Assembly (NCBI GenBank): GCA_036172245.1
Contig: JAYWIR010000115.1
Location: 1-64,000, forward strand
From: Raillietiella orientalis
Taxonomy: Eukaryota
Length of the DNA: 64,000 bases
Reading direction: 5' to 3'
A program made the translations under genes and the position numbers. Within the stretch, counting starts at the first letter, position 1. Each line of letters begins with the position of its first letter. This document shows, one piece after another, positions 16,980-64,000 of the stretch. The notes below the pieces were generated by a model. It saw only the letters and a list, made by a program, of their open reading frames with translations. It had not been told where the DNA came from and did not search any database.

Positions 16980-17497
16980 TCAGCAACAGGAGGCTGTGAG
17001 CTCATCCTCATCCGCGGAAACAACCTCCAGAAGTCAGAACGTCAGTCTAAGTAGCCGAATAGATGAATTCCAGCATGCTGCGAGGCAAATGACCACTTGA
17101 GCGAAAAAGGGAAACGTGAGAAAAAATGTTACGAATCCATCACGCTCCGACGTTGCACTGTAGGGAAAGCCCAGGGACGATGGTGAGCAGGAGAGTGACT
17201 TCCCACACCTTCCATGCGACCCTGCTGATCAGTCGATTCCATGGAATAGAAAGAACAGCAACAGGAAGCACATCGTCCTCCTTGCTCTTCAAAAGATCGG
17301 GGTGCGTAAGTGGCCGTACCACTTTCCAAGGAATAATACCTGGATTCGAAAGTCACTGACACATCCGCGTGGACAATTCGAACGTCCGAAGACTGTGCGA
17401 AGACGACAAAAGACGAGACACGGCCACTACGCTGCGTGACTTTCACCAGTTGCACCTGTAGGAGATCCATGTGATCAGCACATAAACGTCCAAAAGA
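16980..17497 (+). mobile_element. Heavily decayed element fragment (ORF1 end + EN start, subfamily D)
   Basis: CCAAGGAATAATACCTGG junction matches 48092-48110; translates to RVDNSNVRRLCEDDKRRDTATTLRDF...EIHVIS (EN start). Confidence 0.7.
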
Positions 17498-20178
17498 TTT
17501 TTCACCCGTCCAAGCCGGGTCGTTTGTTCCATATAATATAAACGGGATCAATCACAATTACATAAAATAAACCAGTTGGAAACCTGGTTCCCATCCCACA
17601 ACTAAACAAGGATGAAGAGAAGATTGCTAGCACGCAGGCCAGAATAACAGTCTTGCGAACGGGGTGGGGGAACGGGATACACAAACAAACAAAAACAAAA
17701 GTAAAACAATTAATGAAGATGACGGGACGAGAGTCTTTGGGATCGTCGTGGTAGGTACCGGGATAGAAGAAACGGCACCGGGAATACAGCAGAGCCAAAA
17801 AGGATGGGGTATGTTTGGGCTACAGGACGCAGTGGTCAGCAGATTACGTTGTTCTCAAAACTATGTAAACCAACAATGGATGCCAACGATGTGTTCTTCT
17901 ACCTCGTCATCATGATGAGGCCACCTCGCAGCCATGTCCATGAATTCACCTGCAAACGGATGAGCCTCCCTTTGCTTTGCTGAGAACCACAGGGCGTAGC
18001 GGGCCTTAACGAAGGCACGAATGCAACACATGGTTGCGGCAATCGCGCCTAACAAAAGTCCATTCTTGATGGAGAAGCGCAGCAGCACATCAATTGCAGT
18101 GCCTCCTTGCGGCAGGATGCCTGAAATCAGCCTTTGCCACAGTTCATGGAGGTCAATGCAGTCCAGCAAGAGGAGCGGAAAAGACTCGATCTCTCCGCAC
18201 CTCAGACAGTTTGGCAGAGCAGCTCTGCGGAAAACGATGCAGAGCTGCCGATTATAGTGGAATGCTCAGTGTGAAGAAGAGCAGCACATCTTGTTCCCAT
18301 TTTAAAGGAAACACGGTGCTATCCAAAAAAACTGGGGGAACTTATATCTGTTATGGGCAAAACTTGAATGTTCACTCCACTTGAGCAGGCCCTTCGCCCG
18401 ATTCCGAGGAGACGCGGTTTCCATCGGCTCCTTTCTCGTCCAGCTGTCCAGGAGCTTGCTCACTTCCGCTATTCTGCAGAACACCCATTTCGCACGGATG
18501 CAACTGTCGTTGCTTTCCCTCTGGGGAAACAGCGCTGAGGCGAGTGGTATTGTGCCCAGACGATCCGACTTCTTGTCCTGCATGATATCGTCCATTGGAT
18601 GACTGAGGAGAAGTCGCAGGCGTCGAAGTTCTTCCGGACGCGCTCCTTCGGAAGCTACCCAAGATGAAAAAGATTACTGCCGCCATGCATTAATGTTCAT
18701 GGGGCGGCAGGAGATCCAACATTGGGCTTCCAGCAGTGAGGAAAGCTGCCTCAGCGGGAAACCAAACCCTATTCTGGTGTGCCGAAAGTGGGGCAGCAGC
18801 GAATGCAGGCCCTCACTTTCCGTTCATCGCCTTAGTATAAGGCGTGCGGGTAAGCACCACGGCGTAGAATACAGCTTGGCACAGAGCCGCAGCATTCGAA
18901 ACACCACCTGCAGCCCTATGCTTTTTAAGTGTAGGATGCTCAAGCTTGCATCCTGACGCAACGCCAACAAGTCTTTAATATTAACACGCGATCTTGCAGC
19001 GCGCTACAACGCTCTGCGTAGAAGGTGCTGCGCCCAGCCTTTGACTTCCTGGGGGGGTGGACAAACAGAAAACAAGGGGCGGAGGAAAGGGGCAACGAAG
19101 GTGCTGCAGCTGCTGGCCCGTTCCGGCAAGACGAACTCGCCTCCTGAGAACGGGCCAAGTGCACGCTCTGCCTTCCGAAAGCAGTCCGACCACGCTACTG
19201 CGATGCAGAAGTCGCATGTGGTGATCCCCAGGCGGATTCAGTTGGACTGCTCCTTCCACGTCGCTCCCACTGGAACAACCATGCACTTCCTCCTGTTGAC
19301 GCTCACGCCCGCATCGCGACGGATCAACTGAAAGAAATCTTCAAGCGACACCGCCGGGGAGGACATGAGCAACAGAAGAAGCAGGTCGTCGGCATAGGCT
19401 GCCACTTACGGTGTACCTGGACAGGAGCTTGGCAGGTTGGCTGGCGTCAGCCTGGAATCCTTCAGCACCAATTCAAAATAGATGCTAAAGAGCAGCGGCC
19501 TTACGCTATCTGCCTGCCTTATTGCTTGCCGTACCGGCACGCCGTACACGCGACAGCCATTAAAAACAATGGATGTAATCGCGTGGCGCAAGTAGGAGCG
19601 CAAGTACACCAACAGGGATGCCGAAAGACCCACACTTTCAAAGAGCTCCAGAAGAAGCTTTTGGTTCACGCAATCAAATGCTTTGTGCAAATCGACTGCA
19701 ACCGCCAAGGCTCCCGGGGTTTCCCTTTGCGACCCGCGCCTCCTTCGGTGAGAGATCCGAAGCGTCACTTCGGCACGACGATCCATCGCCACGCGATGCT
19801 GCAATTGCAGCCATGTGCGGATGAACAAGAGGTTCGCGTCCATGGACCGCCCAGGAACAGCGTAGGTCTGCTCCGAACTTAACAAAGACTCCGCGATCTT
19901 TCCCATCCGCGCCACCCAAAGTTTCAAGAACAACTTTACAACTATGAATTCACTAATGTGATCGGACGCCAATTTTTCTGTTGGCGCAAATCTCCGCCTT
20001 TTGGTAGGAGACACACCTTCGCTGAGCGAACCGAGGCGGATACATCGCTCGCGTCTCGTATGAGCGACGAGAGTTCACGCACCAGGGGGATGAGCTCCGT
20101 TGCAAAGCACTGAAAGAGCTCGGCGGGGAGACCATCCTCGCCTGGCGTTTTTGGTCTCTTGAGGCGCGAGAGGGCGGC
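17498..20178 (-). mobile_element. 3' half of an element (RT, zf-RVT, 3' UTR), decayed
   Basis: KTPGEDGLPAE, NWRPITLVN, DLHKAFD, YADD near 19385-19398; terminus AACAAA-CGACCCGGCTTGGACGGGTG-AAAAA at 17498-17528. Confidence 0.88.
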
Positions 20179-21803
20179 GTCCGGAACAAAAGCCAAATCC
20201 ATGCCGCGCGTAAAAACTCTCCGAGAATGTACGGTTACGCTGGAGCGCATGGACGTTCCCGCCGACACCACCGGAGGCAATACGGCTTCAATCGATTTTC
20301 CCACCGCGGCGGATACGCGCAGAAACCCAACCCCTGCCGGCGAAGAGTGTCAGCCGGGCGACAAACTCGCCGAAACTGAGGACGCACCCTTCGAGAAGGC
20401 CGCGGAGGAGCTTCCGGCAACGCTTGCCGAACGCGAGAACCCCTCGCGAGAGGGGTTGCGTAGGCCGGCAGCAGCTAAAATAGCCCCCAAAGGTGAGTCA
20501 GACCGAAAGTCCGGAAGTGCATCCTTCTCTGCGGAAGCATCATCAAGGAAAGCGGGCCGAAAATCTTAGAAACCCTGAAGGTGCATTCCGCCTCCGCGCG
20601 AGGTGGATGCAATGCACGAGAACCAGTGGACGGCAGCGTAGGAACCCAAGTCGAGCATTACCCACGTGCGGAAGCCGACGAGGAGGCGACTTCAATAAAG
20701 GAGGGTATTCAGGGGTCAGCAGCGCCCCCTGAAACCGCCGAACCTGAACCATTCGCACCAATGGATGTGGGCCAACAGGTACGAACAACACCCCCTTCGC
20801 ACGAGCAGCCGGAGACGTCAACACGTAAGAAGGATGAGGAGTTCGTGGGCAAGACGCCAACCCCGTCCAGCGACCCAGCCCAAGAGGTGACGGGAGCATC
20901 ACTGCCAGGTTTCCAGGAATAACACCTGGACTCGCCTCTCACGGTCGGATCCGTGCGGCCTGTAGGAATGTCAAGGGGCTTCGCGACGACGGAAACAGAC
21001 AAGACACAGCCGCCACCTTACGAGATTTCGACCTGGTACTTTTGCAGGAGATCCACGTGATCACCGCAAAAGACGCGCAGGAGATCGAAACGATCGCAAG
21101 GGGGCCGTTGAACTGGCGATGCGGCGCTCGCAACACCTGTGGGGTCGCGTTCTTTCTGAAGCCAGCCATCCACGCCGCCGTGAAGGGCGTGCGCTTTGGG
21201 GACGATGGACGGATCGGCCAACTGACTCAGAGATGGTCCGATTCGATCGACCTCATCGTCACCAATGTGAACGCTCCTAGCGGAAACAAGTTTACCAGCA
21301 GCGCAACGCGTTACTAAAAACCTTGAAGCACGAATGGCTGGTGGACACGTACCAGCGAAAGGCGCATCTTATAGCAAGGGATTTCAATGCCCGCCTGCTC
21401 TCAGATCAGCACGGAGCACAGGAGAACGCGATCAACGAGTTGTGCGCCGCCATGTGCGCGCACAAATTGTTCACAGAAATACAAGGGATGGTCAGCAGCG
21501 TGGACCACGTCTTCCTCGACGAAGACCTGTGTACACGGGTGGGAAAACGAGGGACACTTGAATCGACGCTGTCGGTTCATTCCCGGTTATTATTCGAGAT
21601 GCGCCCGCGCGACAAGAGACCTCAGTCCAGGGATTGGCGTATGCCAGGGGACTGAACGTACCTGTGAGCAGCGAAAGAACATCTTCGCGAATTCCTGCGA
21701 GGCGTCACCCTCCAGAGTCTCGCGGATTGGGAACTATTTAACGACTCGGTCCGGGAGTTCTGCGAGCAGTTACCTATGCAAAGTCTGCCCTGGGGATTTG
21801 GCG
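20179..21803 (+). mobile_element. Subfamily D element fragment (ORF1 C-half, EN, linker up to GFG)
   Basis: RECTVTLERM, FEKAAEEL; ORF1 stop 20920-20922; EN fragments 21042-21655; ends at GGATTTGGCG. Confidence 0.88.
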
Positions 21804-24800
21804 TTATCACCCGGGTACGCCCGGTGCGTTTATTCGCAAACTCTACATGCGTGGTACGAGGCCCCTCCACGGCCGTAAACACAGCACCTGTCAAGACACT
21901 GAGACGCAGCCCGGCGTGGCAATCCCCAACAGCGATGGGGGATGGAAAGAAGACAAAAAGAAAAATAAAAAAAGAAACAAAAAGATGTTGGAGGGCAGGC
22001 TAAGGATCACTGGTCGCTGTGGAGAGGGCCCATCCGTCGAACGAAGCCCTCGAGGTCTGTCTGAATTTTCCCTACATAAGGCCATCCGGCAGCTCTCCGC
22101 AAGAAGCGTTGGGCATACGGGATGACATCCCTCGCCTGTGGACACACTCCTTCGTTGTTGGCGTCGCTCCATGCCGCCGCGATGCCACGGACGCAGCACA
22201 AGACTGCGATGGCTGCGGCTGGCTGCAGTGCGTCCTTCACGAAGAGGGTCCGAAGAACGTCTGTGGGGGTGCTGCCCGTATGGAGCCCGAGGGTCGTCCC
22301 GAACCGTTTTTAAAGGGGTCGGAGGGCAGCACAATCCACAATAAGGTGAGGAAGCGAAACCCGCTCCCCGCACCTGGCACACGCAGGATCCACAGCTCCC
22401 CTCGCCCAGAGATAGCGGCGCGCGTTGCAGGGTAGACCCCAGGGCAACAGGAGCAACGCCGACTCTTGGCACTTGAGAAGCAGGATCCTAAATTCTTTCA
22501 TCTCCGGGGGCAATTCAGCTCATCCCTAGATATGGCGAGCAGCTCGCCCAATCTTCCTAATCCTCGCGGCTGGACGCTTGGTGTCGTGGCGTCGGCCAGT
22601 TCTCCTGTTGTCCAGCCGCTACTCAACTTCTCGCGTCCCTCGATGCAGCAGGAGACTTGCGACCTTGGCGTCCGGCTGCTGTGAAGTGCCCTTCTCAGGA
22701 AGGGCAGCGCCGTACCTAGGCAGGTCGTCTCTGCCCACGTGCATCTTGCTGGACTCTCCAGGAGATTCCGCAGTGTGCAGCGGGCGTAGGGGCTGCATCG
22801 GAAACGATTCCACGTTTCCTGGCTCCTCTGGTTAACCGCTGCCCACGTTTTAATATTCTCCTCCATCCAGGCGGAGGAGTTGGCGGGGCAGCAAACCATC
22901 CAGCTGTTCTCCTTGGCCAATGTTGCCAAGCGCCCGAGCAGTAGGCCGCATCTTCGCATCTTCCGGCCACGGCTCAGAAGAAAAGACGCGAGTCCATCGC
23001 ACCGGGACACACGGCTGGCCAGGAAGCGGGCCGGAGTGCACCAAGGGGTGCTCCACATCTTCGCTGCGGTGGCGAGGGTTCGCCACCGCAGCTGCTTCTC
23101 CACGCGCTCCAGCGTAAGGAGGCCAAGACCGCCGTCCCGACGCGGAGCGCACAAGTCCTTCAGTGGGACTCGGGGCCTCCCCTTGCCCCAAAGGGCGATA
23201 CGGAGGAGGTCCTTTGTCCTCTTCTTGGATTCCACGGTGAGGGGGCAAACAAAAAGCAAGGGGCTGAGAATAAGGGCCGCGAAGGCGTTCCAAACCGCGG
23301 CCCGTTCCGGCAAGTGAAACTTGCCTTCCAGGAACGGGCCGATCGCCTTTTCGACTTTTTGGAGGCAGCTGGACCACGGTTCCGCAGAGAAGAAGTCCCC
23401 CAACGGCACACCGAGGTACTTGATGCACCTCACCGTGGGGATACCCAGACGGACCCAGTCCTGCTGCCCTGCCCACGCCGCACCTATTGGCACAACCGAC
23501 GACTTCGCCCTGTTAACCTGCAGTCCGATCCCGCGGCTGAGCAGATCGAAGAAGTCTCCGACCACCTTTGCCGGGGTAGACATTAGCAACAACAGCAGAA
23601 GATCGTCGGCGTACGCTGCTACGGCGGGCGTGCCGGGGCACGAGCTCGGTAAGGGGGCCAAAGTCACCCTGTACGCTCTCAGCACCAACTCAAAGTATGT
23701 GCTGAAGAGCAGGGGTATGAGGCTATCTCCCTGCCTTATGCCCCGCCGCACCGGCACGCCATACACCTTGTGACCGCGGAAAGAGACGGTCATCATCGCA
23801 TTCCGACAGCAAGAGCGCAGGTAGGAAAGCAGAGAGGGTGGGAAGCCCACGCGACGCAAGAGCTCTAAGAGTAGTTCCTAGTCTACACAGTCGAACGGCA
23901 TGTGGACATGGACTGCGAGCGCGAGGGCACCCTTCCCCGCCCGGGGTTTTCTTTTCAGCCCGGATTGCGGGCCCAATGTGGGGTTGCTGACTTTCATTAT
24001 CCCTTTCTTCTCTCTTCTCTGCAGGTGCATCCATGTGCTTTCGAAGGAGAGGTTGGCATCCATACTTCTCCCGGGAACAGCATAAGTCTGCTCCGGGCTA
24101 ATTACGGATCCTGCCACCTGCCCCAGACGCGAAGCTGATAGCCCTGCTATTAACTTGACGTCTGTCTGCACGATCGTGATAAGACGCTAGTTCTTTACAT
24201 ATCTAAGGTTTCCCCCTTTCGGAAGGAGCCTGACTCTGGCTGACCGAAACGAGGCGGGAACATCGCCTTCGTCTCGGATCAGCCTGAACAACTTAAGCAA
24301 CAGGGGTTCCAGCTCTTCCGCGAAGCTCTAAAAGAACTCCGCGGGGAAGCCGTCTTCCCCTGGAGCCCTACGCCTTTTAAGCCTTTTGATACCGGTGAGA
24401 ATTTTGCCGGTGGTAAAAGGCTGGTCAAGGCTTTCCATCTCCTCCTCCACTATTGCCGGGGCACCATCCGGAAGCAAGCGCCGAAAGGCGTCTCGATCCG
24501 GAAGCTTCCTGGTGTGAAGGGAGGAATAAAAACCCCGCATGAGATGTAGTACCGACTCCGGGGACGAACATTCCCGGCCCTGGTCGCCCAGCAAGCTGGC
24601 CGACCCGGATTGCCAGGCCTGGCGTTCGGCCCCGGCGCGGTACTCGGCCAGGCGACGGACATTAGGGATTCTCTCGTACCTACGAGCCTGTAAATAAGCC
24701 CGATGCTTGCGAGGACCGTCGCCGAATCCGGAAGCAGGCGGTTTAAGGGGAACTGCTAGCAGAACTACCGGACCAAGGCCATAAAAAGGTCCCAATCCGT

Positions 24801-24815
24801 AAGACTCTGGAGCGT
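21804..24815 (-). mobile_element. 3' half of an element (linker, RT, zf-RVT, 3' end)
   Basis: ORF 22498-23859 with GIRQGDSL, YADDLLL, KYLGV; terminal AATAAA (21829-21834) + CCGGG-CGTA-CCCGG hairpin. Confidence 0.92.
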
Positions 24816-25597
24816 CGAGCGGACGTGTCTTTTCGCTGCTCCTGAGTTTCATTTCCATTGGTGCTTGCGCGTGGTGTGGGTGGAGGATTAGGCAGCAATG
24901 CCTGATACCATCACCGACGAGGATCCGGGGGCGATGACCTCATTGCCCCGGAGGAGTTGGAGGTGGGGCTTCCGCATCAGTGGAGGCTCCCGAGAGCACG
25001 GATGCGGCCCCGGCCCTACCCAGGGCTTGGAACACCGTGGCTGCGGCACCTACGTCAGCGGAAACTCTACTCCTTTTGTCGATTACGACGAGGTGCTTGG
25101 CGGCCTGAGTGCAGCGCGAGAGACGGTTCGCGAATGGTGTGAGTTTCCCCACAAACTCACCTTCAACGGTGAATCCGTTGACGTGCAGTACGTGGGGAAA
25201 CCCAAGTTATGCGGCTGCTGCAGCAGCTTTGGTCACCTTAAAATGAGGTGTCTGAGCGTGCAGTGCCAGCAATGTGAACAAGCAGGCACACCCGTCTGAT
25301 GTGCCCCCAAAACACAGTTCGCGTTATGTCCGCAAAAAACGCGAGTAAGCGCGCGGCTAAAAAAAGAAAGAAGTTGGCAGCTCGTGCTGCTGCTAAGGAA
25401 TTCACCTACGCCACCAAGGCGAAGGCCAGCCCCGACACCCCGGCGAAAAACGCCAAAAAGGTCGAGGGTGAGGGTCAAGAGCCAGGTTGGCAGAAGGTCG
25501 ACTCCAAGAAGAAGTCCTCTAAGAAGGGTAAAAACGTACAGAAACGGAACGAAACCGCTTCGCGCCGCGAAAAAACCAAAACCTGCTGCGTCGTCGT
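24816..25597 (+). mobile_element. Subfamily B element, 5' part (ORF1 with internal deletion); continues at 36965
   Basis: GAGCGGACGTG at 5' end; CGCCSSFGHLKMRC knuckle; ends in 10-bp TSD GCGTCGTCGT (25588-25597). Confidence 0.88.
25588..25597 (+). repeat. 10-bp target-site duplication GCGTCGTCGT (partner 36965-36974)
   Basis: Exact direct repeat flanking the subfamily C element; single copy in the uninterrupted paralogue near 60601-60611. Confidence 0.9.
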
Positions 25598-28307
25598 TTA
25601 TGACACGGTTGCGCCGGGACGTTTATTAAAATATCAACTAAGAACTGTGTTCCCAGGCAAGGGGAACGGAAAATGGGGAGTAGATTTCCCGGAACGCAGT
25701 ACGGGCACACTGAGAGTTCGGAACGGGAGGGGGTGGGACAATAAATAAACAAACTGGGTGGGGGGGCGCAGACAGGGGTATACCGTCTAACCGTTGCTAT
25801 TCTCAGAACCGGCGGTGAATGCCGCGGATCTCCATCCTCACTTCTGCTCCAAGATGTGGCCACCCGGCAGCCATTTGCAGGTTGCAGGCTGCGGTGTCCG
25901 GGACCGATGTTGGGACTGCTCGCCTCTGCAATACGTGACGGGCCCTGACAATGGCGCGGACGCAGCGGATAATTGCGATGACCGCTCCAAGAGAAAGTCC
26001 GCCACGCGTGTAGAAGCGGCGCATCCAATCCAGTGCGGTGCGTCCAGGGTGCAGGAGCGCTGGAGACAGCCGCTGCCACAGCTCCTGGAGGGCACCGCAC
26101 TCAAACAGCATATGCGGAAGCGATTCTACCGCTCCGCATTTGGTACAGTCCGGAGACGCAATCCCCCCGGGAATCAGTTGCGCCCGCTGGTTGCAGTACA
26201 AACCCCAATGCACCAGTAGAAAAGCGTCCTGCTTCCACCGAAGGGGGAAGTGAGTAGCGTCCAAGCACGCAGAAGGGACCACAAGTTCATCGGTGGGCAC
26301 CCCGAGGAGCTCACTCCACCGTAGAAGCCCCTTTGCAAAAATGCGAGGTGAGGCAGCGTCTGCCACTTCGCAAGTCCGCCAGCCGCCCAGCAGTCGGGTT
26401 TCGCCTGCGATTTCGCAAGTGATCTCTCACCTCGCTGGCAGGTCACTGTCATCTCGCACCATCAGTGCACACAGTACTTCGGCGAGTGGCGTAGCGGCTA
26501 GGCGTGTCCACTGGTCCTGGTCTTCCAGCACCTCCCCCACTGGACAGTACGGGGAAAGTTTCACGCAACGGAGTTCCAAACGGGACACATCCTGTTGCGC
26601 TGCCCAGGACGATAAGGCTTCCTGCCTCCAGGCGTTGAAGTTCGTCGGCCGGCAGGAGATCCACTCATGCTTTCCCAGAAGCGTGGCGAGCTGCTTCAAA
26701 GGGAAGCCGAATCCTCTCTGGGCGCGCTCCGTGCGCAGATGCAACGAACGTAGTCCGTCGCCACCCGTGCTGCGCCGCAGCAGCAGCCGCGCTAAAGCAC
26801 ACCAGGGAGTAGTCCAGAGCTGCGCACAAAGTGCCAGCATGCGGAACTGCACTAGCAGTCCGATCCACTCCAGCGTCAGGATGCCCAATCCTGCATCCCG
26901 CCGAGGAGCCGCCGAGTCCTTCAGGCGCATCCTTGACCTCGCCGGTCCCCAGAGGGCGTTACGCAACAGGCGTTGCGCCCGGCGCTTAGCCGAGTAGGGA
27001 GGGGGACAAACAAAAAAGAGGGGACGGAGGAGGGAGGCAACGAAAATGTTCCACAGAAAGGCCCGTTTCGACAGGAGAAACCTGCCGCCTTGGAACGGGC
27101 CCAGAGCAGTCTCGGCCTTGTGAAGGCAGTCCGACCACGCTTCTGCTGGACAGAAGGCGCCCAAGGAAACGCCGAGGTACTTCAAGCACCTGCCCGTGGG
27201 GATCCCCAGGTGGATCCAGTCGGACTGCCCCTCCTACGTAGAGCCAACCGGTACAACGGTTGATTTCGTCCTGTTCACGCTCAGGCCTGCTCCCCGACGA
27301 ATGTGCTCGAAGAAGTCCTCGAGCCTGGACGCCGGAGTGGACATGGGCAGCAGCAGGAGAAGGTCGTCAGCATAGGCGGCCACGGCCGGTGTTCCCGGGC
27401 AGGAGCTCGGCAGGTTGGCCAGCGTCAGCCTGTACGCCCTCAGCACCAACTCAAAGAAGATGCTGAAGAGCAGGGGGCTTAAGCCGTCTCCCGGCCTGAT
27501 ACCCCGCCGTATGGGAACACCTTACACGTGACGCCCGCCGAAAGAGATACAGCATAACGCGTGGCGCCAACAGGAGCGCAAGTAGGCGATGAGGTGCGTC
27601 GGGAGCCCTAAGCGTTTCAGAAGCTCCAGAAGGAGTTCCTGGTTTACGCTGTCGAACGCTTTACAGAGATCGACGGCGACCGCTAAGGCTCCCGGCGTTC
27701 CAACGTGCCTTGAACACCGCCGCTTTCCTTTGGTAGCGGCGATTTCGGCTGCCTGGCTCTGTTGCGCCACGCGCTGCTGCAACTCGAACCGTGTACACGC
27801 GAAGAAGAGATTCGCGTCCATGGACCGCCCAGGAACAGCATACGTCTGCTCCGGACTTACCATGGACTTTGCGATTCTCCGCAGGCGCGCGACCCATAGC
27901 CTGGAGAACAACTTGACGTCCGAATTCACTAATGTGATCGGACGCCAGTTGCTGAGGTGGCTCAAATCACCACCTCTCGGCAGGAGCCGCACCTTTGCTG
28001 AGCGGAAAGAAGCAGGAACATCTCCCGTCTCACGCATCAGCGAGAAAAGGCTTAGCACCAGGGGGACGAGCTCCGCCGCGAAGCACTGAAAGAACTCCGC
28101 TGGCAGGCCACCCTCTTCAGGCGCCTTAGGCTTCTTCAGGCCCGCTATGGCAAAAGATACTTCTTCCGCCGTGAAGGGTCAATTCAATCTGGCGCGTTTC
28201 TCCTCGTCGATAGCAGGGTTGCCCGTCGGAAAAAGCAGCTTGGAGAGACTGCGTTCCGTGGGCTCCTTTGCGTACAACGAGGAGTAGTAGCGCTTGACTA
28301 CGCGTGT
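25598..28307 (-). mobile_element. Subfamily C element, 3' half (RT, zf-RVT, 3' end); 5' half at 33876-36964
   Basis: VKRYYSSLY, NWRPITLVN, DLCKAFD, YADD, CTKCGAVESLPHMLFEC; terminus AATAAA-CGTCCCGGCGCAACCGTG-TCATAA. Confidence 0.92.
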
Positions 28308-28397
28308 ACGGCGGACGCAATTGTTGTGCGCTCCGTGGATAAGGAGTTTTTCTTTTCTGGTGTTTCGTGTGAGTTGCGCGGCCGTTGACAGGCAGAA

Positions 28398-30011: not shown

Positions 30012-30019
30012 ACACACCA

Positions 30020-54754: not shown

Positions 54755-57624
54755 TGCCACCCGGATACGCCAGGACGTTTATTGAAAACATTCCGACAGT
54801 CAATACAGAACGTGGTACAAGGTTCCACTGACAGCCACGCAATACCGGAACTGCGGGGACACCGGGACGCAGCTTGGTGTGGCTGTCCTCGGCAGTGGAG
54901 TGGGATGGGGGAGAAAACAAAAATTAAATAAAGGAGAAAAACAAACCACAAAAAAAGTTTGGTGGGCCGGGAAGGGATCACAGAATACTGCTGGGAGGGC
55001 CCATCCTTTGCAGGATGCCTTCTAGTTCCATTTTCAGTTTTCCTAGATGGGACCATCGGGTACCTCTCTGCAGGAAGCGAGAAGCATACTCGTTGACGTC
55101 CCTCACGATGCAGTCTTCATCTTCGGCATCACTCCAGGCCGCCGCGATACCACGAATGCAGCAAAGTGTTGCCAGGGCTGAGGCTGGACTGAGAACGTCC
55201 CGCACGAAGACAAGACTGAAGACACATCTAACATTGCCACCATCCGGTATCCCAAGTGCCGTTTTAAGACAATCCCAAAGAATCCGGACGCAGGGCATTG
55301 AACTCAGAGGTGGGGGAGCGAATCCAGCTCCCCACACCTGGCACACGCAGGATTTACTCTTCCCCGCGTCCAGTGGAAGCTGCGCGGGTTGCAGGGTAGA
55401 CCCCAATGCAGCCACAGAAGCGCCGATTCTTGCCACTTCAGGAGAAGAATTCTGGATTCAAGTACAACCGGGGGCCACTTCAGGTCATCCAATCGAATGC
55501 CGAGCATCTCGCCCCATCTTCTCAATCCACGCGGCTGGAGACTAGGGGTCGTTGCATCTGTCTACTCTCCCATGGTCCAGCCGCTTATCATCTTCTCTCT
55601 GCCTGCGATACGGCAGCAGACTTGCCACCTTGGCTTCCGGGTTTCGTGAAGCGCCCTTTGGAGGAAGGGCATCGCCGTAACAAGGGGTGTGCCTTCCGCC
55701 TACGTGCAACTCGGTGGAAATTCAAGAATTTCACGGAGAGTTCGGCGGGCGTAAAAGCCGACTCGCAGGCAGTTCATCCGGTCTTCGCAGCTGTGGTTCT
55801 GCTTGGACCAGGTGCCAGCAGTCTCTTCCAGCCAAGCGGAGGAGTTGGCAGGGCTACAAGCCATCCAGTCGTTCTCCTTTGCCAGGGTTGCCATGCGGCC
55901 GAGCAGTAGTCCGCATCTTCGAATCTTCCGGCCAGGGCACAGAAGAAAGGATGCGAGTCCTTCGCAGCGGGACACACGCCTGGCCAGGAGGCGGGCCGGA
56001 ATGCACCAAGCGGTGCTCCACATCTTCGGTGCGATGTTGAGGGTCCGTCATCGCAGCGAAGCATGTGGAGCCTCCCCTTGCCCCAAAGAACTATGCGGAG
56101 GAGGTCCTTCGTCCGCTTTTTAGATTCCACGGGGGCGGGGCAAACAAAAAGCAAGGGGCGGAGAATGGGGACCGCGGAGGCTTTCCAAACCGAGGCTTGT
56201 TCCGGCAAGTGTAACTTGCCTTCCAGGAACGGGCCGATTGCCCTCTCGACTTTTTGGAGGCAGCTGGACCACGCTTCCGCAGGAGAGAAGTCCCCCAACG
56301 GCACACCGAGGTACTTGATGCACCTCACCGTGAGAATCCCTATACGGACCCATTACTGCTGCCCTGCCCACGTCGCTCCAACTGGCAACACTGACGACTT
56401 CGCCCTGTTAACCTGTAATCCGGCCCCACGGCTAAGTAGGTCGAAGAAATCTCCGATCGCTTTCGCCGGGGTGGACATAGGTAAGAGGAGCAGAAGATCG
56501 TCGGCATACTCCGCTACTGCTGGCGTGCGGGGCACGAGCTCGGCAAGGGGGCCAAATTCACCCTGTACGCTCTCAGCACCAAATCAGCGTAGGTGTTTAA
56601 AAGCAGGGGGCTGAGGCTGTCGCCCTGCCTTAAGCCCCGCCGCACCGGCACGCCATACACCTTTTGTCCACTGAAAGTAATCGAGATTATCGCGTTCCGC
56701 CAGCAAGAGCGCAGCTTGCTAATCAAGGAGGGTGAGAAGCCCATACGACCCAGGAGCTCCAAGTTGAGTTCCTGGTCAACACAGTCGAATGCCTTATGGA
56801 GGTCCACAGCGATCACTAAGGCCCCCTTTCTTGCATGGGATTCCCTACCCTGTTCCACTGGCGGCCTCAAAGTGGGATTGCAAATTTTCCTGTTCCCTTC
56901 TTTCCTACTCCGCTGCGCGTGCATCCATGTGCTCGCGAAGAAGAGGTTGTCCTCCATACTTCGCCCGGGAACAGCGTAAGTCTGCTCCGGGCTAATTATG
57001 GAATTGGACAACTGCACTAATCGCGACGCCCATAGTCCGGCGATCAACTTGGCGTCCGTGTTCACAATTGTGATCGGACTCCAGTTGCTTAGTTTCCTGA
57101 GGTCCGCTCCCTTCGAAAGGAGCCTTACCCTAGCTGATTGAAACAAGGCGGGAACATCGCCCTTGTCTCGGATTTGCCTTGTCAACTCGAGCACCAGGGG
57201 GGCTTGCTCTTTCACGGAACTCTGAAAAAACTCCGCGGGCAAGCCGTACTACCCTGGCTCCTTACGCCTCTTGAGCCTTTTGATACCGGCAGGAATTCCA
57301 CCGATCGTGAAAGGCTCATCGACGCTTTCTCTTCCTTTCTCACCTATCGCCACGAAACCACTCATGAGCAATCGCCGCGAGGCGTCTCATTCGGGTGGTG
57401 TTTACGCGTAAAGGGAGGAATAAAAACACCGCACGAGATTGCGTACCGCAGACGGGGACGATCGTTCGCAACGCAGGTCATCCAGCATGCAGGCTGACCC
57501 GGATTGCCAGGCTTGTCGCTCGGCTCCGGCGCGGTATTCGGCAAGGCGACGGACATTGAGTCTCCTCTCGTGACGACGCGCGTGCAAATACGCGCGTTTG
57601 TTGCGAGCCCTTTTTCCAAATCCC
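54755..57624 (-). mobile_element. 3' half of an element (from GFG linker to 3' end)
   Basis: GFGKRARNKRAYLHARR, DLHKAFD, YADDLLL, CARCGELDSLPH; AATAAA + CCTGG-CGTAT-CCGGG terminus. Confidence 0.92.
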
Positions 57625-59269
57625 TTGGCGAGTGGACGTGTTTTTCCTGAGCTCTCGAGCGAGTCGGCAGGAAGCGGTTTTTTCTCTGTGCCTTTTTGTG
57701 TGGAATATCGTTTGTGTCTCATGGTAGCGATGCCTGAGGGCACTACGATGGAGGTAGGTTTGGGGGAGGCTTGCTCACTTCCACAGCCTACAGTATCACG
57801 GGCGTGCGCCCGGAATCACCCTCGCCGCCTGAGGCGAGGATCTGGAGCGCCATGGTGGCCGCGCCGAACGCGTAAACCATGGCCGAGATGGCAGCATACC
57901 GGGCAGCTGTGTACAAGCCCAGTCTGGTATACCAGGTAGGCAATCTCTTCGACGGGCGAACTGCACGCGCTTTTTCGAAGGCGCTGCAGAACGACAACGT
58001 ATTAGAGAAGGATGTTGACGGTCTATGCTTGCTCAGCGGGGGTCAGCGCGTCGAGGTTGTCTGCAAGGACATCACCTTGGCGCAAAGCTTGATTACTACC
58101 CCGCTGAACGTGTACGGACGCAAGATCCTTCCAGTCACGATGGACCGCTCCGTGGTTAACCATCTGACTGCCATCACCAGCCGCATGACGCGGTCTGCGC
58201 TTGGTGATCAGCTAAAAAAATATGGAGCCGTTCACGCGTTATGGCCAAAGGCCACAATCCTCGATGACTACGATAGCCTTTTCGAAGGGCAGGCCGCCGC
58301 GCGCGTGACGGTGAAGAAAGATAGTGGGCTTCCCCACAAACTAGAGGTCAATGACGAAGTCGTAGACCTCTGGTACGTGGGGAAACCACGCTTTTGTGGC
58401 TACTGCAAGGCAGTAGGACACTTGCGCAAGCGGTGCCCGAACATTGTGTGCCACTTATGCGGGGAGAAGGGCCACGTGCGCCGCGTATGCCCTAAACGCC
58501 TTACTCTGGTGCTGCCTGCCGCAAAAAAAGCGCAGGCAAAACGCGGAAAATTGGTCGAAAAATCAAAGAGAGATACTGGCCGGCAGCAGCCGCTAGCCCC
58601 CGTTCCTCCCACACAGGCGTGAGAAGAAAAACCTTCCGAAGACACGGAAGTCCAGGACAACTGGCAGCTGGTTAAGGCCAGCAAGGAGAAAAAGGTGTAC
58701 CCCGCGGAACCCGCGAATGCGGTCAAAAAGACAGCCGGCAAGGGGAAAACACCTGGGCCGCGCTCCAAGACCATGCGGGAATGTACGGTGGCACTGGAAC
58801 GCATAGCCGTTCCCGAGACTGCCACCCGGGGCGACGAGCCTTCCCTCGCCGTTTCCGCCGCGCCCGAGGTTCGCGACGGCGAACCCTCTGTTTACACAGA
58901 GGGTGAGCCGTGCGAAATAGCGACGGTCGAAGTCGAGGACGCCGCTTTCGCGTTGGCGGCGGAGGAGCTCGCGGCCACGCTGGCCGAGCGTGAGAACCCC
59001 TCGCGCAAGGCCGTGAGAAGGCCGGCTCCGGCGAAGAAGGCCCCCACAGGTGAGTTAGACCTGGGGGCCAGAAGTACATCCTCCTCCTCGGAGGCACACC
59101 CCAGGAAGTCGGGACGCAAGACCCAGAAACCCAGGAGGCGCCTCCCCTCCACCAGCGAGGAGGAGAAGGAAGGAAGCAGGAAGGTAGCGGAAGCGTGGGA
59201 ATCTTGGAAGGGAAACTCCCACGCTCGGAAGCCGTCGAGCTGGCCACCCTCATGGAGGACAATGAGCAG
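57625..59269 (+). mobile_element. Subfamily D element, 5' UTR + most of ORF1
   Basis: GAGTGGACGTGTTTTT at 57630; ORFs 57879-58622 and 58695 onward paralogous to 46355-47880. Confidence 0.9.
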
Positions 59270-61243
59270 ATGTTCCGCCGCATCCGGGAACTTCAGCCAG
59301 TCCACTGGCAGATGCCACGCTTACGAGGGGGGGCCCTTGTCGCGCGGATGCACTTCGAACACGATTCGGCCAAGGTCCGACAGCTTGGACGGTAACTTGC
59401 CGCGCCTGCCCACGCGAGAGCATAGGTGCTGGTCAAGGTACACGTGATCGATGCTCCGTTCCATGTCCGTATCTCCGGCCAGCAAGTTCCACGTGCGCAT
59501 TTGCGCGCACAACTCGTTGTCGCGGTCGTTCAGTGTATCCGGCGCACCTGAAAGCAGGCGCAGGTTGAAATCACCTGCGATCAGGTGCGCTTTGCAAACA
59601 CTTGCTTCGATCAGCCAATCGCGTCCGAGGGCAAGGTAGAATTCCCTTCTTGCCTTCGCCCTCAACGCGTCCTTACCGCTAAGAGCGTACAGGTTGGTGA
59701 CTACCAGGTCGATTGAGTCGGACCAGCTGAGAGTCAGCTGACCGACGCGACCGACGTCATCAAACCGTACGTCCATTATTGCGGACTCGATGGCTGGTCG
59801 GAGCAGGAAGGCGACACCGCTAGATTTCGCGGTACCGCAGCGCCACATCAGCGGACCACCCGAGATCCGTTCGATCTCCCGGGCTTGATCTGCGGAGATC
59901 ACGTGGATCTCCTGCAGCAGTACCAGGTCGAAGGATGCCAGGGTGGCGGCCACGTTACGCCTCTTGCCGTCGTTGCTTAGCCCGTTGACGTTCCAGCAGG
60001 CGATCAGCAGACGACGACGGGAGGCGATTCCCGGCTTTATTGCTGGGAAGGTGACGTTGCACCACCTGCCGCGGGGCAGGTGTTCGGGATGTCCATGGGG
60101 ACGGAGGCCTCTTCAGGCACCAAAGGCACCTGTTCGGCCTCCACCCCCTCCATCTCCTCCGTGTCCGCGCGTAAGATTCTCTCGGGCTACGGGTCGCGTG
60201 AGTTTCCCACGCTCATCGCACCCTCGCAGCCGGAAGTTATCTCTTCCCCTTCGTCGGGGGAGACGATCTTCCGGGGCATTGTCGACTTTCGTCCTGCCTT
60301 TTTGCAGGGTGCCGAGGAGATGGATGCTGTGTTTCCGTCCTTCACCTCGGGGTCGGAAGTGGCCGACTCCTGAGGGGGAGCCGGACGTCTGACGGCCTTC
60401 TTGCCAGCCTTGGGAGCGGCCGGCTTCAACGAGGCAGCCAGTTCCTCCGCGGCGCGCTCGAAGGCGACGTCATCGAGCGTGGGCTCGATGACAGACGCCG
60501 CCGCCTCGCTTTCCTTCTTGTTGACTTTGTCAACGGATGGTTGAGCAGGGGCAGCAGCGAGTTCTTTAGCGCCGCATTCGTCGATGGCGGGAATCCGCTC
60601 TACGACGACGCAGCAGCTTTTGGTTTTTTCGCGGCGCGGAGCGGTTTCGCTCCGTTTCGCCACGTTCTTTTCCTTCTTAGGGGAGTTTTTCTTGGGATCG
60701 ACCTTCTTCCACCCTGGCTCTTGACCCTCGCCCTCGACCTTTTCGGCGTTTTTCGCCGGGGTTTCGGGGCTGGCCTTCGCGTTGGTGTCGGAGGTGACTT
60801 CCTTAGCAGCAGCACGAGCTGCCAGCTTCTTTCTTTTTTTAGCCGCGCGCTTTCTCGCGTTTTTTGCGGACACGACGCGGACTGTGTTTTGGGGGCACAG
60901 CAGACGGGTGTGCCCCGCTTGTTCACATTTGCTGGCACTGCACGCTCCGACACCTCATTTTAAAATGACCAAAGCTGCTGCAGCAGCCGCAAAAATTGGG
61001 TTTCCCCACGTAGCACACGTCAACGGATTCACCGTTGACGGTGAGTTTGTGGGGAAACTCACATCCCTCGCGAACCGTCTCTCGCGCTGCACCCAGGCCG
61101 CCAAGCACCTAGTCGTAATCAACAAAAGAAGTAGGCTTACCCCACAGCGCGTGGACAGTTGCAAATATTTCTAATTCGTTCTGGACGGCCTCCTTCTTCA
61201 TCCGGAACGTGATACCGGTCAGGTGAATGATCACCGACCGGTC
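59270..61243 (-). mobile_element. Subfamily B fragment (ORF1 from RRM region, EN)
   Basis: EN ORF 59321-59953 nearly identical to 37623-38366; ORF1 60187-60873 matches 25299-25597 + 36965 onward. Confidence 0.9.
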
Positions 61244-63932
61244 TTCAGTAATTGGGAGAAGCCTTCGGCGTTCGGGAGGAGGAGCTCCTTGTTATCATGC
61301 CTTCGGGTAGGATGGAATACACCAAGATACTTTATAAAAACGCGACACTTGTGCAGAGTCTTCTCCTTACTCCGTTGTCCATCGGTGGCAAGGAAGTCCT
61401 GCTTTCCGTGATGGACGACTCGTTTATCGTCCAATTGTGCGACATCGAGAGGGAAATCTTCGACCGTGATGTCGTAAGTGTGCTAACGAAGTTCGCCACC
61501 GTGCACGCTCTGTGGAGGAGGCCAAATCCTTGCAAGGATTTTCCCTCTGTCCACATTGGACAAGTCCCGCGCGGATCACCGTCGCGAACAGGCGTGTTGT
61601 GCCCAAGCAGCTTCAGGTGAACAGCACGGTCGTTCACAAGTGGTTTATAGGACAAACTCACGCGTGCGAGCAGTGCGGCAAGGAGGGACACGGAATGAAG
61701 GAATGTCCCACCCCGAAATGCCGCTATAGCAAAGAAACCGGGCACGAAATAAAAAAGTGCCTGGTTCTTGCAAAGAAAACGGCAGCAGCGGTAGTCCGTC
61801 GCGTTCAGGAAACCAACGCAGGAAAGGCCGCTGCCCCCAAGAAAAAACAGTGTCCGCGGAGTCTTGGCAAAAGAGCCAAGCAATACACAGCAACACAAAA
61901 GGCGTCCCCGCCCTCAACGCCCCAAAAGGGTGAAATCGCGGCATGGAAGCCAATTAAACAGGGGCGTGCCTGCCCTCGCTGCCGTACTGGGTAACACCTC
62001 GCCAATCCAGAAACAGGGAAATATCCGAAGAACCTCGGTTGAAAAAGTAGGTGAGCAAGAAGATCGCCATAAAGCGAGGACTTCCAGCTCAAACCCGCTA
62101 TCCCTTCCCAAACCGGCAAACCATCAATATAACGTAGGGCTCTCTACGGCGGCTACGAAACCCGTAGCAAGCGGCGGCGCGCCGCGCAAAAACATGCTGC
62201 ATGCAGCCGACCCTCCACGGACTCGGCAAGAGAGGAGCAATCTCCCGACTGCCAAGAAGGTGGCTCCGCTGCCACCTTTGAAAGGCGTGGCGAAAGCGAC
62301 GCCCCTAGAGGCGGCAGCGAAAACTCCGGAGGTTTCCGAGACGAACGTCCTGGAAGCGTTCGGAAATCGTGAAGGAGAATGGAAGGTTGTGGAGAGGAGA
62401 AAAGAAAAACCTTCCAAGAAGGCTTCGCAACCTCCATCCGTTAGCTCTTTGAAGGCGCAGAACAGCCTCTTAGACAAGAAAACACGCGCGGAGGAAAAAG
62501 CCAGCGCCGTCAACGCTTACAATTCCGCCTCTCTGAGCGCCGAGAAGACGATTCCGGTGCGATCGGAAGGATTCAAGGGTACGTCGATCGTGCGAGCATC
62601 AAACTCTGTAAAGGAGTCCGATAACGACGCTGAACGACGTGTTACTTGCGCGGGAGCGAGCGTCCGCAGGGCTGAAGCCCTGAGGCATGACACACTCGCC
62701 GCGGAACGCCGAGTGCTCGAACCGGAACCCACAGTTTCTGATCCCGGGGTGGTGGACTCGATAACGCGCAGCACGGTGAAGGCCGGTAGCGACCGCTCCC
62801 TCCAGCCCGTCGTGCTGCTTACTGCCCGCTCGCCGGGTGAGCCGAGCACCACGGCCTCGCTATCCCAGCCGTGATGAGGGCAATCGCGTCTTCTCGTCGT
62901 GTTGCGGTGGCGTGCTGGAACGGCAACGGTCTCCAACACGACAAGAAGAGGCGACTAGTAGCTAACGCTCTGCGCGCCTTCGACTTGACGCTCCTGCAGG
63001 AGATTCACAGCATCTCCGAAGAGCAGGCTGCCGAAATCGAACGTCGCGCGGGCGGAAGGCTACATTATAGGTGCGGCGTCGCACGTACGTGCGGCGTCGC
63101 TTTCGTTTTACGAAGAACTTCGGCGGGAGCGGTGCCCGGTGTTTGCTTCGATACGGAAGTCCGTGTGGGACAGCTTGAACTCAAGTGGTCCGACTCGATC
63201 GACCTTGTCGTAACGAACGTGTACGCGCTTAACGGTGCTGGATGATGGGCCGAAAGAATTGAGTTCTTCGGTACCGTTCAAAGCCAGTGGCTCACTCGAT
63301 CTCACCCTACTGTGGCCCATCTCATTGCGGGAGACTTTAACGTCCACCTGCTTTCCGAGAATAGCTTCCACAAAAGGGAAAAGTTTCTAGCGGAAGAGAT
63401 GTGCGCGGCCGTGCACGCGTCCAACTTTTTCGCTAGCGACCCTGTTCTGGCGACATCACCGGACCATGTATTCCTCGATGAATACTTGCTCTCTCGAGTG
63501 GGTCCGAGATGTTCCATGCCGTCCGTGCTTTCGGACCACATCAGGCACGAATTCGAGTTGCTCCCGCCAGGCAAGGGGCCTCCAAACTGTGTTTGGAGGA
63601 AGCCAGCAGACTGACTAAGTCACCCGGAGGCGGCGGAGCATCTTCGCCTGTACCTACGCGGCTTCGCCATAAGTGAGCTCGCTGACTGGGACGATCTGAA
63701 CAGATCGGTCCGCGAGTTTTGCTGCCAGTTTCCCTTGCACCAGCTCTCGCGCCGCTTCGGAGAAGGTGGAGGGAACAGCAGAAATTTTCTGCAGGCCCGC
63801 TCCTACTCCAGGCGCGCAGACGTTGGTCGATTATACGAGTACAAAGCCAAGGCTGAGCGCCAGGTCTGGCAGTCTGGAGCTACATTTCTGATCGACGACC
63901 AGGACCGGGAATGCTCGGCACCAGCCAATGTT
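61244..63932 (+). mobile_element. Subfamily C-type element, 5' half (ORF1, EN, linker to ECSAPANV)
   Basis: CEQCGKEGHGMKEC knuckle; TGATG junction 62872-62876; EN fragments 62871-63614. Confidence 0.9.
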
Positions 63933-64000
63933 TGTCACCCGGATATGCCGGGGCATTTACTATTCTAATTTTGTACAAAAATTAGATAATAAAGTCTTTA
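63933..64000 (-). mobile_element. 3' terminus of a subfamily A element, continues beyond the window
   Basis: Reverse complement nearly identical to 33810-33875 (AGTAAA + CCCGG-CATAT-CCGGG). Confidence 0.88.

Follow-up and report, generated by a model that had tools for sequence, protein, structure and literature searches.

A non-LTR retroelement array occupies 1-9 kb and 17.3-64 kb of the 64-kb window, the whole stretch of DNA analysed here. Between its two parts lies a low-GC stretch (8.9-17.3 kb) whose 14 ORFs match no Pfam family at E<=0.001; its weak matches to ANCHR-like_BBOX (E=0.0076) and ThiJ_like (E=0.28) are both far below the cut-offs. No Rfam family and no tRNA was found in this stretch. 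It contains one 40-bp tandem repeat and one weak inverted pair.

What are the elements of the array? Pfam finds an APE domain (Exo_endo_phos, E=5e-13 and 5e-15) and, in the frames 22498-23877 and 31721-33088, an RT domain (RVT_1, E=1.6e-11 and 1.4e-8), both above cut-off. The order APE then RT is kept in the elements E1, A-ref and M. Among solved structures, human LINE-1 ORF2p is the best match to the APE and linker frame (E=1.3e-33; R2, ~5e-3); the RT fragment alone matches chains 8gh6/8ibw ('Reverse transcriptase-like protein', 2e-11) slightly ahead of L1 (4e-8). A zf-RVT-like C-terminus (25.7 bits, Pfam cut-off 27.5) and zf-CCHC matches in ORF1 (20.4 and 16.8 bits, cut-off 20.8) are below threshold, and C-x2-C-x4-H-x4-C strings are present in the A1 translation. 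Judged by domain order and by likeness to L1 ORF2p, these are L1-superfamily non-LTR retroelements, as the first-pass annotation had held.

The copies are 70-80% identical to one another and carry 0-7 in-frame stops each: 6 in 1448 aligned codons in E1, 3 in 1500 in M, and none in the 1682 codons of the five ORF pieces of A-ref, where the frame is broken between pieces. Grouping by dS gives families A (A-ref, E1, O), B (F, Ia, Ib, K, M, P, Q), C (G, R, J, N) and H (H1, T), with Z set apart. An earlier count of at least five subfamilies is reasonable; we count at least four to five. Word-indexed protein database searches returned two weak matches and then one, and the ESM Atlas gave only generic RT clusters. 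An exhaustive HMMER protein search yielded 13,768 matches at E<=1e-3, one of them (P0005) labelled 'exonuclease III', and two at E<=1e-30: a turtle gene model (P0003, 'unnamed protein product', with a fourfold internal repeat and ~30% identity) and a 619-aa metagenome protein (P0004) that is 58-70% identical to the window copies over most alignments.

Four exact positions recur in the map below. S1 lies in the APE-RT linker (GFG|E, the bar marking the junction), S2 57 codons downstream, S3 within the APE and S4 in the ORF1-ORF2 spacer.

1..51, + strand: L, element 3' end with a family-A type hairpin (terminus motif 22-51), flanked by a 12-nt S4 remnant of the host
52..1588, + strand: the 12-nt S4 remnant (52-63), then Y (tblastn map), with its terminus at 1581 and S4-like remnants on both sides
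1589..7023, + strand: 16-nt S4-like remnant, then E1, full-length (5' start motif, ORF1, APE, RT, 3' end)
7024..8115, - strand: X, host 5' part cut at S4 (ORF1-ORF2 spacer), the putative recipient of E1, Y and L in tandem
17318..17498, + strand: V, decayed APE N-terminal fragment ending at S3 (..AAGAT|; tblastn E=1e-7)
17499..20178, - strand: Z, 3' end to A3 aa 410
20179..21803, + strand: F, family-B 5' part ending at S1
21804..24812, - strand: Ia, family B, 3' end to A3 aa 271
24813..25597, + strand: G, first part, with full-length 5' start (GAGCGGACGTG), ATG at 24899 and an internal ORF1 deletion, ending at S4
25598..28313, - strand: H1, 3' part, 3' end to S2
28314..33875, + strand: A-ref, full-length family A, within H1 at S2, both host flanks present
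33876..36950, - strand: H1, 5' part, S2 to 5' start
36951..38427, + strand: G, second part, S4 to S1, opening with the 10-bp target duplication GCGTCGTCGT
38428..40236, - strand: Ib, family B, 3' end to A4 aa 100
40237..43340, + strand: J, family C, 5' region to A3 aa ~493
43341..46243, - strand: K, family B, 3' end to exactly S1 (starts at ..|AAGGG)
46244..51909, + strand: ~18-20 nt of filler, then M, a complete family-B element
51910..53300, + strand: N, family-C fragment, A2 aa 111 to A3 aa 342 (J is 89% identical)
53301..54754, + strand: O, family A, 5'-truncated, ending at S1
54755..57632, - strand: P, family B, 3' end to 12-16 nt past S1
57633..59198, + strand: Q, family B, full-length 5' start to A2 aa 177
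59216..61273, - strand: R, family C, A3 aa 278 to A1 aa 133, a G paralogue with an empty site
61282..63932, + strand: S+T, probably a single family-H element (dS to H1: T 0.87, S 1.5), A1 aa 99 to S2
63933..64000, - strand: U, 3' end of a family-A-type element, placed at S2 of T

By tblastn, Y is internally deleted: it retains its 5' UTR and ORF1 aa 12-258, then runs from A5 aa 75 to the 3' end. The fragment V (span ~17318-17498), host of the terminus at 17498, is detectable only with sensitive tblastn. The filler between K and M is not a piece of N, and F and O do not begin at S4; they start ~35-60 nt upstream of it.

The elements share a 3' terminus: AATAAA, a CCCGG..CCGGG hairpin with 5 GC base pairs, then TG and 2-4 nt, ending GGGTGNNAA. 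The AATAAA stands 24-26 nt ahead of the element end. Poly(A) is absent: the termini end in GGGTGNNAA, and A-runs do not exceed 2-5 A. A motif scan finds 12 true 3' termini in the window: the ten listed in the first pass, all real and each with this terminus, and two more at 51 and 1581. The 5' starts are also alike (G[AT]G[ACT]GGACGTGTTTTT-like sequence), and 5' extents range from full-length to truncation at A2/A3. The hairpin is conserved in sequence, with compensatory changes in none of its five pairs and hence no covariation signal; by eye, the RNA 3' end shows no pairing with its target past the terminal AA/TT. A metagenome scan for the terminus pattern gave six loci, none with a tblastn match to the element proteins, and we regard these as chance matches.

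Every one of the 12 termini adjoins an element of the same superfamily in the tblastn map, as had been claimed for the first ten. Their reported orientation also stands: nine are antisense to the host and one, 51909, is sense. At 51 and 1581 all that is left of the host is 12-16 nt of an antisense site, and the 5' end of the next element comes directly after. Counting these two, 11 of 12 termini are antisense (two-sided P ~0.006, hand binomial). L-Y-E1 is the sole same-orientation tandem stretch, with 12-16 nt left over from a single host site between its elements, and its sense head-to-tail junctions are best read as repeated antisense insertions into that site. From 17.3 to 51.9 kb, 12 segments switch strand without exception, which bears out the described alternation of a (+) 5' half with a (-) 3' half. 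Strand composition is not the source of the bias: the purine fraction is 0.48-0.54, GC skew ~0 and CpG o/e ~1.

Where in the host do the elements insert? The first-pass annotation named coding sequence in general as the target. Mutual, almost always antisense insertion holds up, but the annotation overlooked that the junctions are not spread along the coding sequence; they cluster at four exact nucleotide positions. Ten of the 12 3' junctions fall at S1-S4 with nucleotide precision on the host sense strand (S1 three times, S2 twice, S3 once and S4 four times). S1 reads GG(A/T)TT(T/C)GG(C/G)G|AAGG. The junctions at 21804, 38428 and 54755 map to positions 97, 95 and 98 of a 183-nt probe, and the K piece begins at 97; S1 also holds two full-length 5' junctions. 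At S2, both H1 and T are broken after AA(A/T)GT. At S3, V is broken at 17498, the same nucleotide as J position 42043. At S4, G is broken directly after GTCGTCGT and X after GTCGTCCGCG, positions at most 2 nt apart. One insertion, that of K at A3 aa ~493, lies outside the four sites. By the junction data, an element would offer at most about 20 usable sites over its two strands.

Sites also sort with families: B is found at S1, A at S2, and E1-type and H at S4, an apparent set of family preferences. A motif derived post hoc, RT|NRMRCGSRT, fits S2-S4 in one codon phase and occurs 24 times in the window against 7.5 expected from mononucleotide shuffles; it is also present at an RT-domain site without insertion in four copies. 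We offer it as a lead only. A weak hint comes from outside the window. One contig of the public run X1 has a K-like 3' end joined in antisense to a host resembling J, at 42043; its shorter side, 26 letters with 90% likeness, is below the caution line of the tool.

We propose that the array grew as related L1-superfamily lineages inserted into one another by target priming, in antisense and with a preference for certain sites, which produced both Russian-doll and tandem arrangements. We put the probability of this reading at roughly 0.7. The signatures of target-primed reverse transcription (TPRT) are present: uniform 3' ends, variable 5' truncation and a target duplication with its empty site. 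H1 in G is flanked by the 10-bp duplication, and the empty site is carried by the paralogue R, which is 91-93% identical to G and runs across it. H1 is in turn split by A-ref at A3 aa 357/358, with host flanks on both sides.

Could the region, not the sequence, be the target? The elements might be drawn to a centromeric or heterochromatic domain in which related copies happen to be crowded; nesting would then be incidental, with orientation and positions owed to chance or to a weak endonuclease preference. The cited sections of work on Zepp/ZeppL place L1 clusters at putative or CENH3-bound centromeres (PMC8226300, PMC3446292, 10.1101/2025.03.28.645958). In the window, moreover, no single target consensus spans all the sites, and what the nicks share is that each comes after G or GT/AT. 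Against regional targeting, four positions are reused to the nucleotide in hosts of different subfamilies. Five coincident pairs were observed; when 10 events were placed at random 200,000 times, the mean was 0.028 and no trial reached five. The antisense orientation of 11 of 12 3' junctions also speaks against it, and we consider it unlikely.

Alternatively, segmental or tandem duplication of the kind seen in centromeric higher-order repeats might have multiplied a few nested composites, so that repeated junctions are copies of one event. Junction classes do recur, and self-alignments cross junctions (21746-23553 with 38370-40189, 33809-34979 with 63999-62829, and 44735-47883 with 56099-59269). 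The pairs G-R and J-N diverge near-neutrally and could be duplicates. Their dN/dS values of 0.75 and 0.86, obtained by the same method, show that it is able to reveal near-neutral divergence. The copies that share junctions look quite different. The S1 hosts F, G and O come from three different subfamilies, with dS of 1.07-1.32 and dN/dS of 0.30-0.39; their inserts Ia, Ib and P are at dS 0.57-0.84 and dN/dS 0.32-0.35. K-P (dS 0.64-0.71, dN/dS 0.26-0.29), H1-T (0.87, 0.31) and M-Q (1.44, 0.16) behave likewise. Host and insert pairs thus both lie at dS 0.57-1.44 and dN/dS 0.16-0.39, and neutral decay of such size would have left many more stops than the 0-7 per copy. Nor is the spacing between repeated junctions constant, and insert 5' extents are unequal (A3 aa 271, A4 aa 100, A3 aa 296). 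By their divergence, then, copies that share a junction are independent insertions, not duplicated composites. Duplication of composites appears largely refuted, and we give it very little weight.

Chimeric joins between repeats in the assembly are a further, highly improbable source of false junctions. The region is highly repetitive. Yet the junctions fall exactly at element termini and not at shared homology, split hosts continue at the matching codon, copies at 70-80% identity are easily distinguished, and H1 in G shows the 10-bp target duplication, with the empty site present in R.

Finally, the junctions might have formed within single retrotransposition events (twin priming, template switching or fold-back), without a resident copy. 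In twin priming one RNA yields an inverted 5' segment and a direct 3' segment joined head-to-head, with the two 5' ends together and the 3' end still at the target. The host break of F at Ia (A3 aa 301) is close to the insert 5' end (A3 aa 271), and the ends at the R-S junction are likewise near (A1 aa 133 and 99), but this origin is scarcely credible: here the 3' end adjoins the partner, partners are often from different subfamilies (G/Ib, O/P), H1 and A-ref have both host flanks, and what follows Ia is G, a distinct full-length element that has a 5' start of its own.

How would insertion at preferred sites build the array? In our model, the endonuclease of each lineage nicks a few specific sense-strand sites in other, often full-length, elements of the superfamily. 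The new copy would lie antisense to its host because the host sense strand primes cDNA synthesis. Recurrence would mean that the machinery of the element itself recognises sequence, and lineages would differ in their preferred site. Since an insertion uses up its site, the newest copy would supply the next free one, and a deep 'Russian doll' of alternating strands would grow. If the site is restored by a target duplication, further insertions there could give a head-to-tail tandem such as L-Y-E1 in host X. The AATAAA probably fixes the RNA 3' end and reverse transcription probably begins at the hairpin-proximal ..GGGTGNNAA, so that an A-tail would not be copied.

Some features call for further events. 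Most of the nests are not closed in the window, which lacks (+) 3' halves and (-) 5' halves other than those of H1, X and R. We therefore treat the deep nest as a model; deletions or other rearrangements must have contributed as well. The junction between Q and R (59198/59216) is not a TPRT junction. The 3' end of M adjoins N in sense and its 5' end adjoins K at S1, so a second event or a deletion is needed there. In the sole public run with matches, X1, 6% of sampled words matched and 169 of 254 contigs are 90-95% alike, and no RNA run is listed with matches; these represent other copies or a relative, and do not validate the assembly. Our evidence comes from one 64-kb window, and elsewhere in the genome the same lineages may also target unique DNA.

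A bolder version of this reading is possible but doubtful. The lineages would form a guild, each having evolved an endonuclease or target-recognition specificity for blocks of conserved codons, located in the 5' half of its relatives and of itself (the ORF1-ORF2 spacer, APE and APE-RT linker), and each would favour a site of its own. Homing antisense into long, potentially active elements, they would inactivate these, spare host genes and build convergent Russian-doll arrays that may seed heterochromatin, centromere-like domains or double-stranded RNA.

Site-specific LINEs target rRNA, snRNA and tRNA genes, microsatellites, telomeres and a few DNA transposons, Tx1L in Tx1D being the classic transposon-targeting case. 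R1/R2-type site-specific LINEs can insert in tandem or repeatedly at one site. Zepp-type L1s are self-nesting, and Zepp copies carry poly(A). The sections cited here describe Zepp/ZeppL of green algae (Chlorella/Coccomyxa, Chlamydomonas) as L1-type LINEs that insert into their own copies, and the window resembles them in self-insertion and in GC-rich nested clusters within lower-GC DNA (PMC8226300, PMC3446292). Insertion into pre-existing copies to form clusters is seen at all 12 termini. Zepp arrays are described in the same source sections as tandem and mostly of 5'-truncated 3' ends (PMC8226300); in contrast to that description, the window has many full-length copies, antisense junctions, four exact positions in the 5' half and no A-tail. 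Poly(A)-tailed, same-orientation 3'-end arrays were not found among its 12 termini.

APE-type site-specific LINEs of the Tx1 and R1 clades have strict targets in multicopy DNA, transposons included, according to the part of the literature cited here (PMC4640811). The window elements resemble them, as there described, in encoding an APE, in strict targets within multicopy DNA and in the harmless 'safe haven' logic, and sequence-specific insertion is seen at ten of the 12 3' junctions. Unlike Tx1 and R1 elements, they target, in antisense, coding sequence of their own superfamily, own subfamily included, and use several sites apparently partitioned among lineages. L-Y-E1, head to tail with 12-16 nt host-site remnants, recalls R1/R2-type insertion, as if target duplication regenerated the site, but here the host site is within another LINE and not an rRNA gene. 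With human LINE-1, the closest solved structure, the elements share the order APE, linker and RT, followed by a possible C-terminal cysteine motif just under the Pfam cut-off, as well as 5' truncation and target duplications, hallmarks of TPRT. They differ in the absence of poly(A), an apparently CCHC-type ORF1 and site-specific target choice; the conservation of the 3' hairpin points to 3'-end recognition of the 'stringent' kind.

The literature searched gave no description of related LINE lineages with nucleotide-precise, one-strand targets in each other's coding sequence. The window points to an intermediate of site-specific and self-nesting LINEs, with signs that sites are divided among lineages. 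Such a self-targeting habit would spare the rest of the genome and build nested arrays. If it holds genome-wide, it would provide a sequence-level mechanism by which LINE-only arrays, centromere-type arrays included, grow without harm to genes. It would also provide a natural set of diverged APE endonucleases whose target sites differ and can be read, and an example of transposon-against-transposon interference.

The window is about 60% G+C at 1-9 kb and from about 17.3 to 64 kb, and 42% in the stretch between. Its GC-rich parts are packed with open frames encoding an APE-type endonuclease and a reverse transcriptase (RT). Our ruler was A-ref (28314-33875, + strand), the copy with the least damage, whose five open pieces served as coordinates:

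A1: ORF1 with CCHC knuckles
A2: spacer
A3: APE, linker and start of the RT
A4: RT
A5: C-terminal zf-RVT-like region

A tblastn search of A1-A5 against the window gave a map of element copies and fragments (designated by letters), with strand and position within the element. Among solved structures, A3 is closest to human LINE-1 ORF2p (E=1.3e-33); zf-RVT and CCHC matches fall narrowly below Pfam cut-offs. The ORF2p match and the APE and RT frames identify the elements, at the level of sequence, as L1-superfamily non-LTR retrotransposons. Their CpG observed/expected ratio is about 1.

Public protein sets contain almost nothing of this element family: exhaustive searching with HMMER returned only two matches below 1e-30. 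The first, a turtle gene model with internal repetition, has about 30% identity. The second is P0004, a 619-aa metagenome protein (contig of 2870 bp), which in most alignments shows 58-70% identity with the RT regions of several copies in the window. P0004 is the sole close relative among 1.84 billion representative proteins, and the family is therefore present in an environmental eukaryote otherwise unsampled in protein databases.

Where do these elements end, and in what do they end? A fuzzy motif scan found 12 true 3' termini:

+ strand: 51, 1581, 7019, 33872, 51905
(-) strand: 17503, 21808, 25602, 38432, 43345, 54758, 63936

Every terminus reads AATAAA-YG-(5-bp GC stem, 4-7 nt loop)-TG; NNAA comes next in 10 of 12, and none has an A-tail. 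AATAAA lies 24-26 nt from the element end. The hairpin sequence is conserved and compensatory changes occur in none of five pairs, so covariation is neutral on structure. AATAAA would set the 3' end of the RNA, and the hairpin-proximal tail may be the start point of reverse transcription. Full-length copies share the 5' start G[AT]G[ACT]GGACGTGTTTTT, with the ORF1 ATG about 80 nt further on.

The first-pass annotation had listed ten 3' ends, nine antisense to their hosts (the interrupted elements) and one, at 51909, sense. All ten are real and their orientations are as described; with the two further termini, 11 of 12 are antisense (two-sided P ~0.006, binomial, by hand). Its claim that 3' ends adjoin other elements holds for all 12 termini. 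The host at 17498, a decayed (+) APE N-terminal fragment, was revealed only by a sensitive search (E=1e-7). The reported strand alternation runs without exception through 12 consecutive segments from 17.3 to 51.9 kb. The antisense orientation is not accounted for by strand composition.

A point absent from that annotation is that 10 of the 12 3' junctions fall at four exact, reused sites in the host's sense strand.

Target sites, with occupancy as tallied by eye on the map and the codon tables
S1: APE-RT linker, conserved peptide P-P-G-F-G|E, sense strand GG(A/T)TT(T/C)GG(C/G)G|AAGG; 5/13 covering copies
S2: 57 codons downstream of S1, ..CCAA(A/T)GT|T; 2/9 covering copies
S3: inside APE (Q-E-I|E-R-I); 1/12 covering copies
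S4: ORF1-ORF2 spacer, C-x-V-V|V-E-R-V-P; 2 of at least 9 covering copies, one of the two struck three times

The hosts F, G and O stop at S1 at 21803, 38425-27 and 54754, which are positions 97, 95 and 98 of one probe. The (-) copy K starts exactly across S1 (probe position 97), beside the full-length 5' end of M. The (-) copy P extends 12-16 nt beyond S1, as expected of a staggered second cut, and the full-length 5' end of Q follows. A-ref in H1 and U in T are the S2 insertions. At S3, Z entered V at 17498, which corresponds exactly to nucleotide 42043 of the intact J. At S4, G is cut by H1 after GTCGTCGT and X by E1 after GTCGTCCGCG, at most 2 nt apart. Past the termini at 51 and 1581 lie 12- and 16-nt remnants of X's S4 site, and Y and E1 start (5' end) directly after them. 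L, Y and E1 thus read as one X site hit three times in succession and regenerated by target duplication; the apparent head-to-tail tandem in sense is a set of three antisense insertions into X. The exceptions to S1-S4 are K, at about A3 aa 493 of J, and M, in sense at A2 aa 111 of N.

No target consensus covers all four sites, and G or GT/AT precedes every nick. A motif built post hoc, RT|NRMRCGSRT, is common to S2-S4 in the same codon phase. The RT-region sequence (G/A)T(G/A)GAACGCGT (5519, 32344, 39928, 44824) fits it on the sense strand and is insertion-free in 4/4 copies; this could be a further potential site or a sign that the motif is insufficient. When 10 events (L, Y and E1 pooled as one) were placed at random over 5.5 kb and two strands, the observed five coincident pairs were reached in 0 of 200,000 trials. 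To match the data, an element can offer no more than about 20 usable sites.

Shared junctions could also have been copied within duplicated composites. We compared copies by Nei-Gojobori dN and dS on codon alignments taken from the tblastn map. For almost every pair dN/dS is 0.13-0.48 and dS runs from 0.45 up to saturation, so the bulk of the divergence built up in active lineages under selection. The S1 hosts belong to three different subfamilies (dS F-G 1.10, F-O 1.07, G-O 1.32; dN/dS 0.30-0.39), and the S1 inserts Ia, Ib and P differ from one another by dS 0.57-0.84 (dN/dS 0.32-0.35). Other pairs are similar:

K-P: dS 0.64-0.71, dN/dS 0.26-0.29
M-Q: dS 1.44, dN/dS 0.16
H1-T: dS 0.87, dN/dS 0.31

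Copies carry 0-7 in-frame stops, far below expectation for 20-25% neutral decay. The dN/dS values, the divergence of both hosts and inserts and the few stops argue strongly against duplicated composites, and on these sequence comparisons the junctions at the same nucleotide are independent insertions. The same method does register near-neutral divergence in two pairs where it is expected: G-R (dS 0.12, dN/dS 0.75) and J-N (dS 0.15, dN/dS 0.86). G/R (24813-25597 versus 59216-61273; 91-93% identical) and J/N (41496-42908 versus 51907-53317; 89%) are much closer than other pairs. Each pair stems either from a common master, as sister copies, or from local duplication, and they date decay at roughly 5-7% per copy.

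Two insertions are proof of transposition. H1 is a full-length (-) element (25598-28313 and 33876-36950) flanked on both sides in G by a 10-bp duplication, GCGTCGTCGT; in the paralogue R its target site is uninterrupted. A-ref interrupts H1 between A3 aa 357 and 358, with a duplication of 0-2 bp. Y (52-1588) joins a 5' UTR and ORF1 aa 12-258 to the last ~100 codons and 3' end. This suggests a copy with an internal deletion, possibly non-autonomous, that retrotransposed as a unit, given the remnants of one host site on both flanks.

Several features fit less well. Most interrupted hosts lack their distal halves in the window, and M's 3' end adjoins N in sense, not the other half of K. G's 5' junction lies 93 nt upstream of Ia's S1. 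A filler of ~18-20 nt (46244-46264, CCTTAACTCCCTCTCCTC..) between K's S1 end and M's 5' start matches neither neighbour, nor J upstream of N's homologue. At 59198-59216, Q (+, to A2 aa 177) meets R (-, from A3 aa 278) without a terminus; this join is a deletion or other rearrangement, not a retrotransposition junction. The left edge of the W fragment (8438-8909) is abrupt and has no terminus. Separating the two arrays is an 8.4-kb stretch (8900-17300; 42% G+C, CpG observed/expected 0.85) in which none of 14 ORFs of >=90 aa matches a Pfam family at E<=0.001, and which has no Rfam family, tRNA or repeat structure; it may be intergenic unique DNA, or sequence that decayed very long ago. In the sole matching public run, 6% of sampled words were present and 169 of 254 contigs were 90-95% alike to the window, giving no junction support. 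One contig from this run connects a J-like host, at the S3 position 42043, with a K-like 3' end in antisense; with a shorter side of 26 letters, this is no more than a hint.

Parts of this behavior are already in print. L1-type Zepp elements nest by self-targeting into tandem arrays of mostly 3' ends (PMC8226300), with one GC-rich nested cluster per chromosome in Coccomyxa (PMC3446292), and ZeppL marks CENH3-bound centromeres in Chlamydomonas (10.1101/2025.03.28.645958). The APE-bearing Tx1 and R1 clades typically show strict target specificity, with transposons among the targets (PMC4640811). A full-text literature search found no exact, multiple, lineage-partitioned antisense targets in same-superfamily coding sequence, although the original Zepp descriptions may overlap.

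The junctions show that the host's sense strand is nicked and primes synthesis, which is why inserts lie antisense. They also show that sites recur, with apparent preferences among lineages: of the six family-B events whose junction is informative, five fall at S1; the two family-A-type events (A-ref, U) fall at S2; and E1-type and H elements use S4. This specificity would reside in the element's endonuclease or another DNA-binding part. Since an insertion would use up its site, the newest copy would offer the next free one. Strands would then alternate from copy to copy (V, Z, F, Ia, G, (H1, A-ref), Ib, J, K, M), and tandems would form where duplication restores the site. Because all sites lie within the 5' 45% of the element, only long copies would serve as targets.
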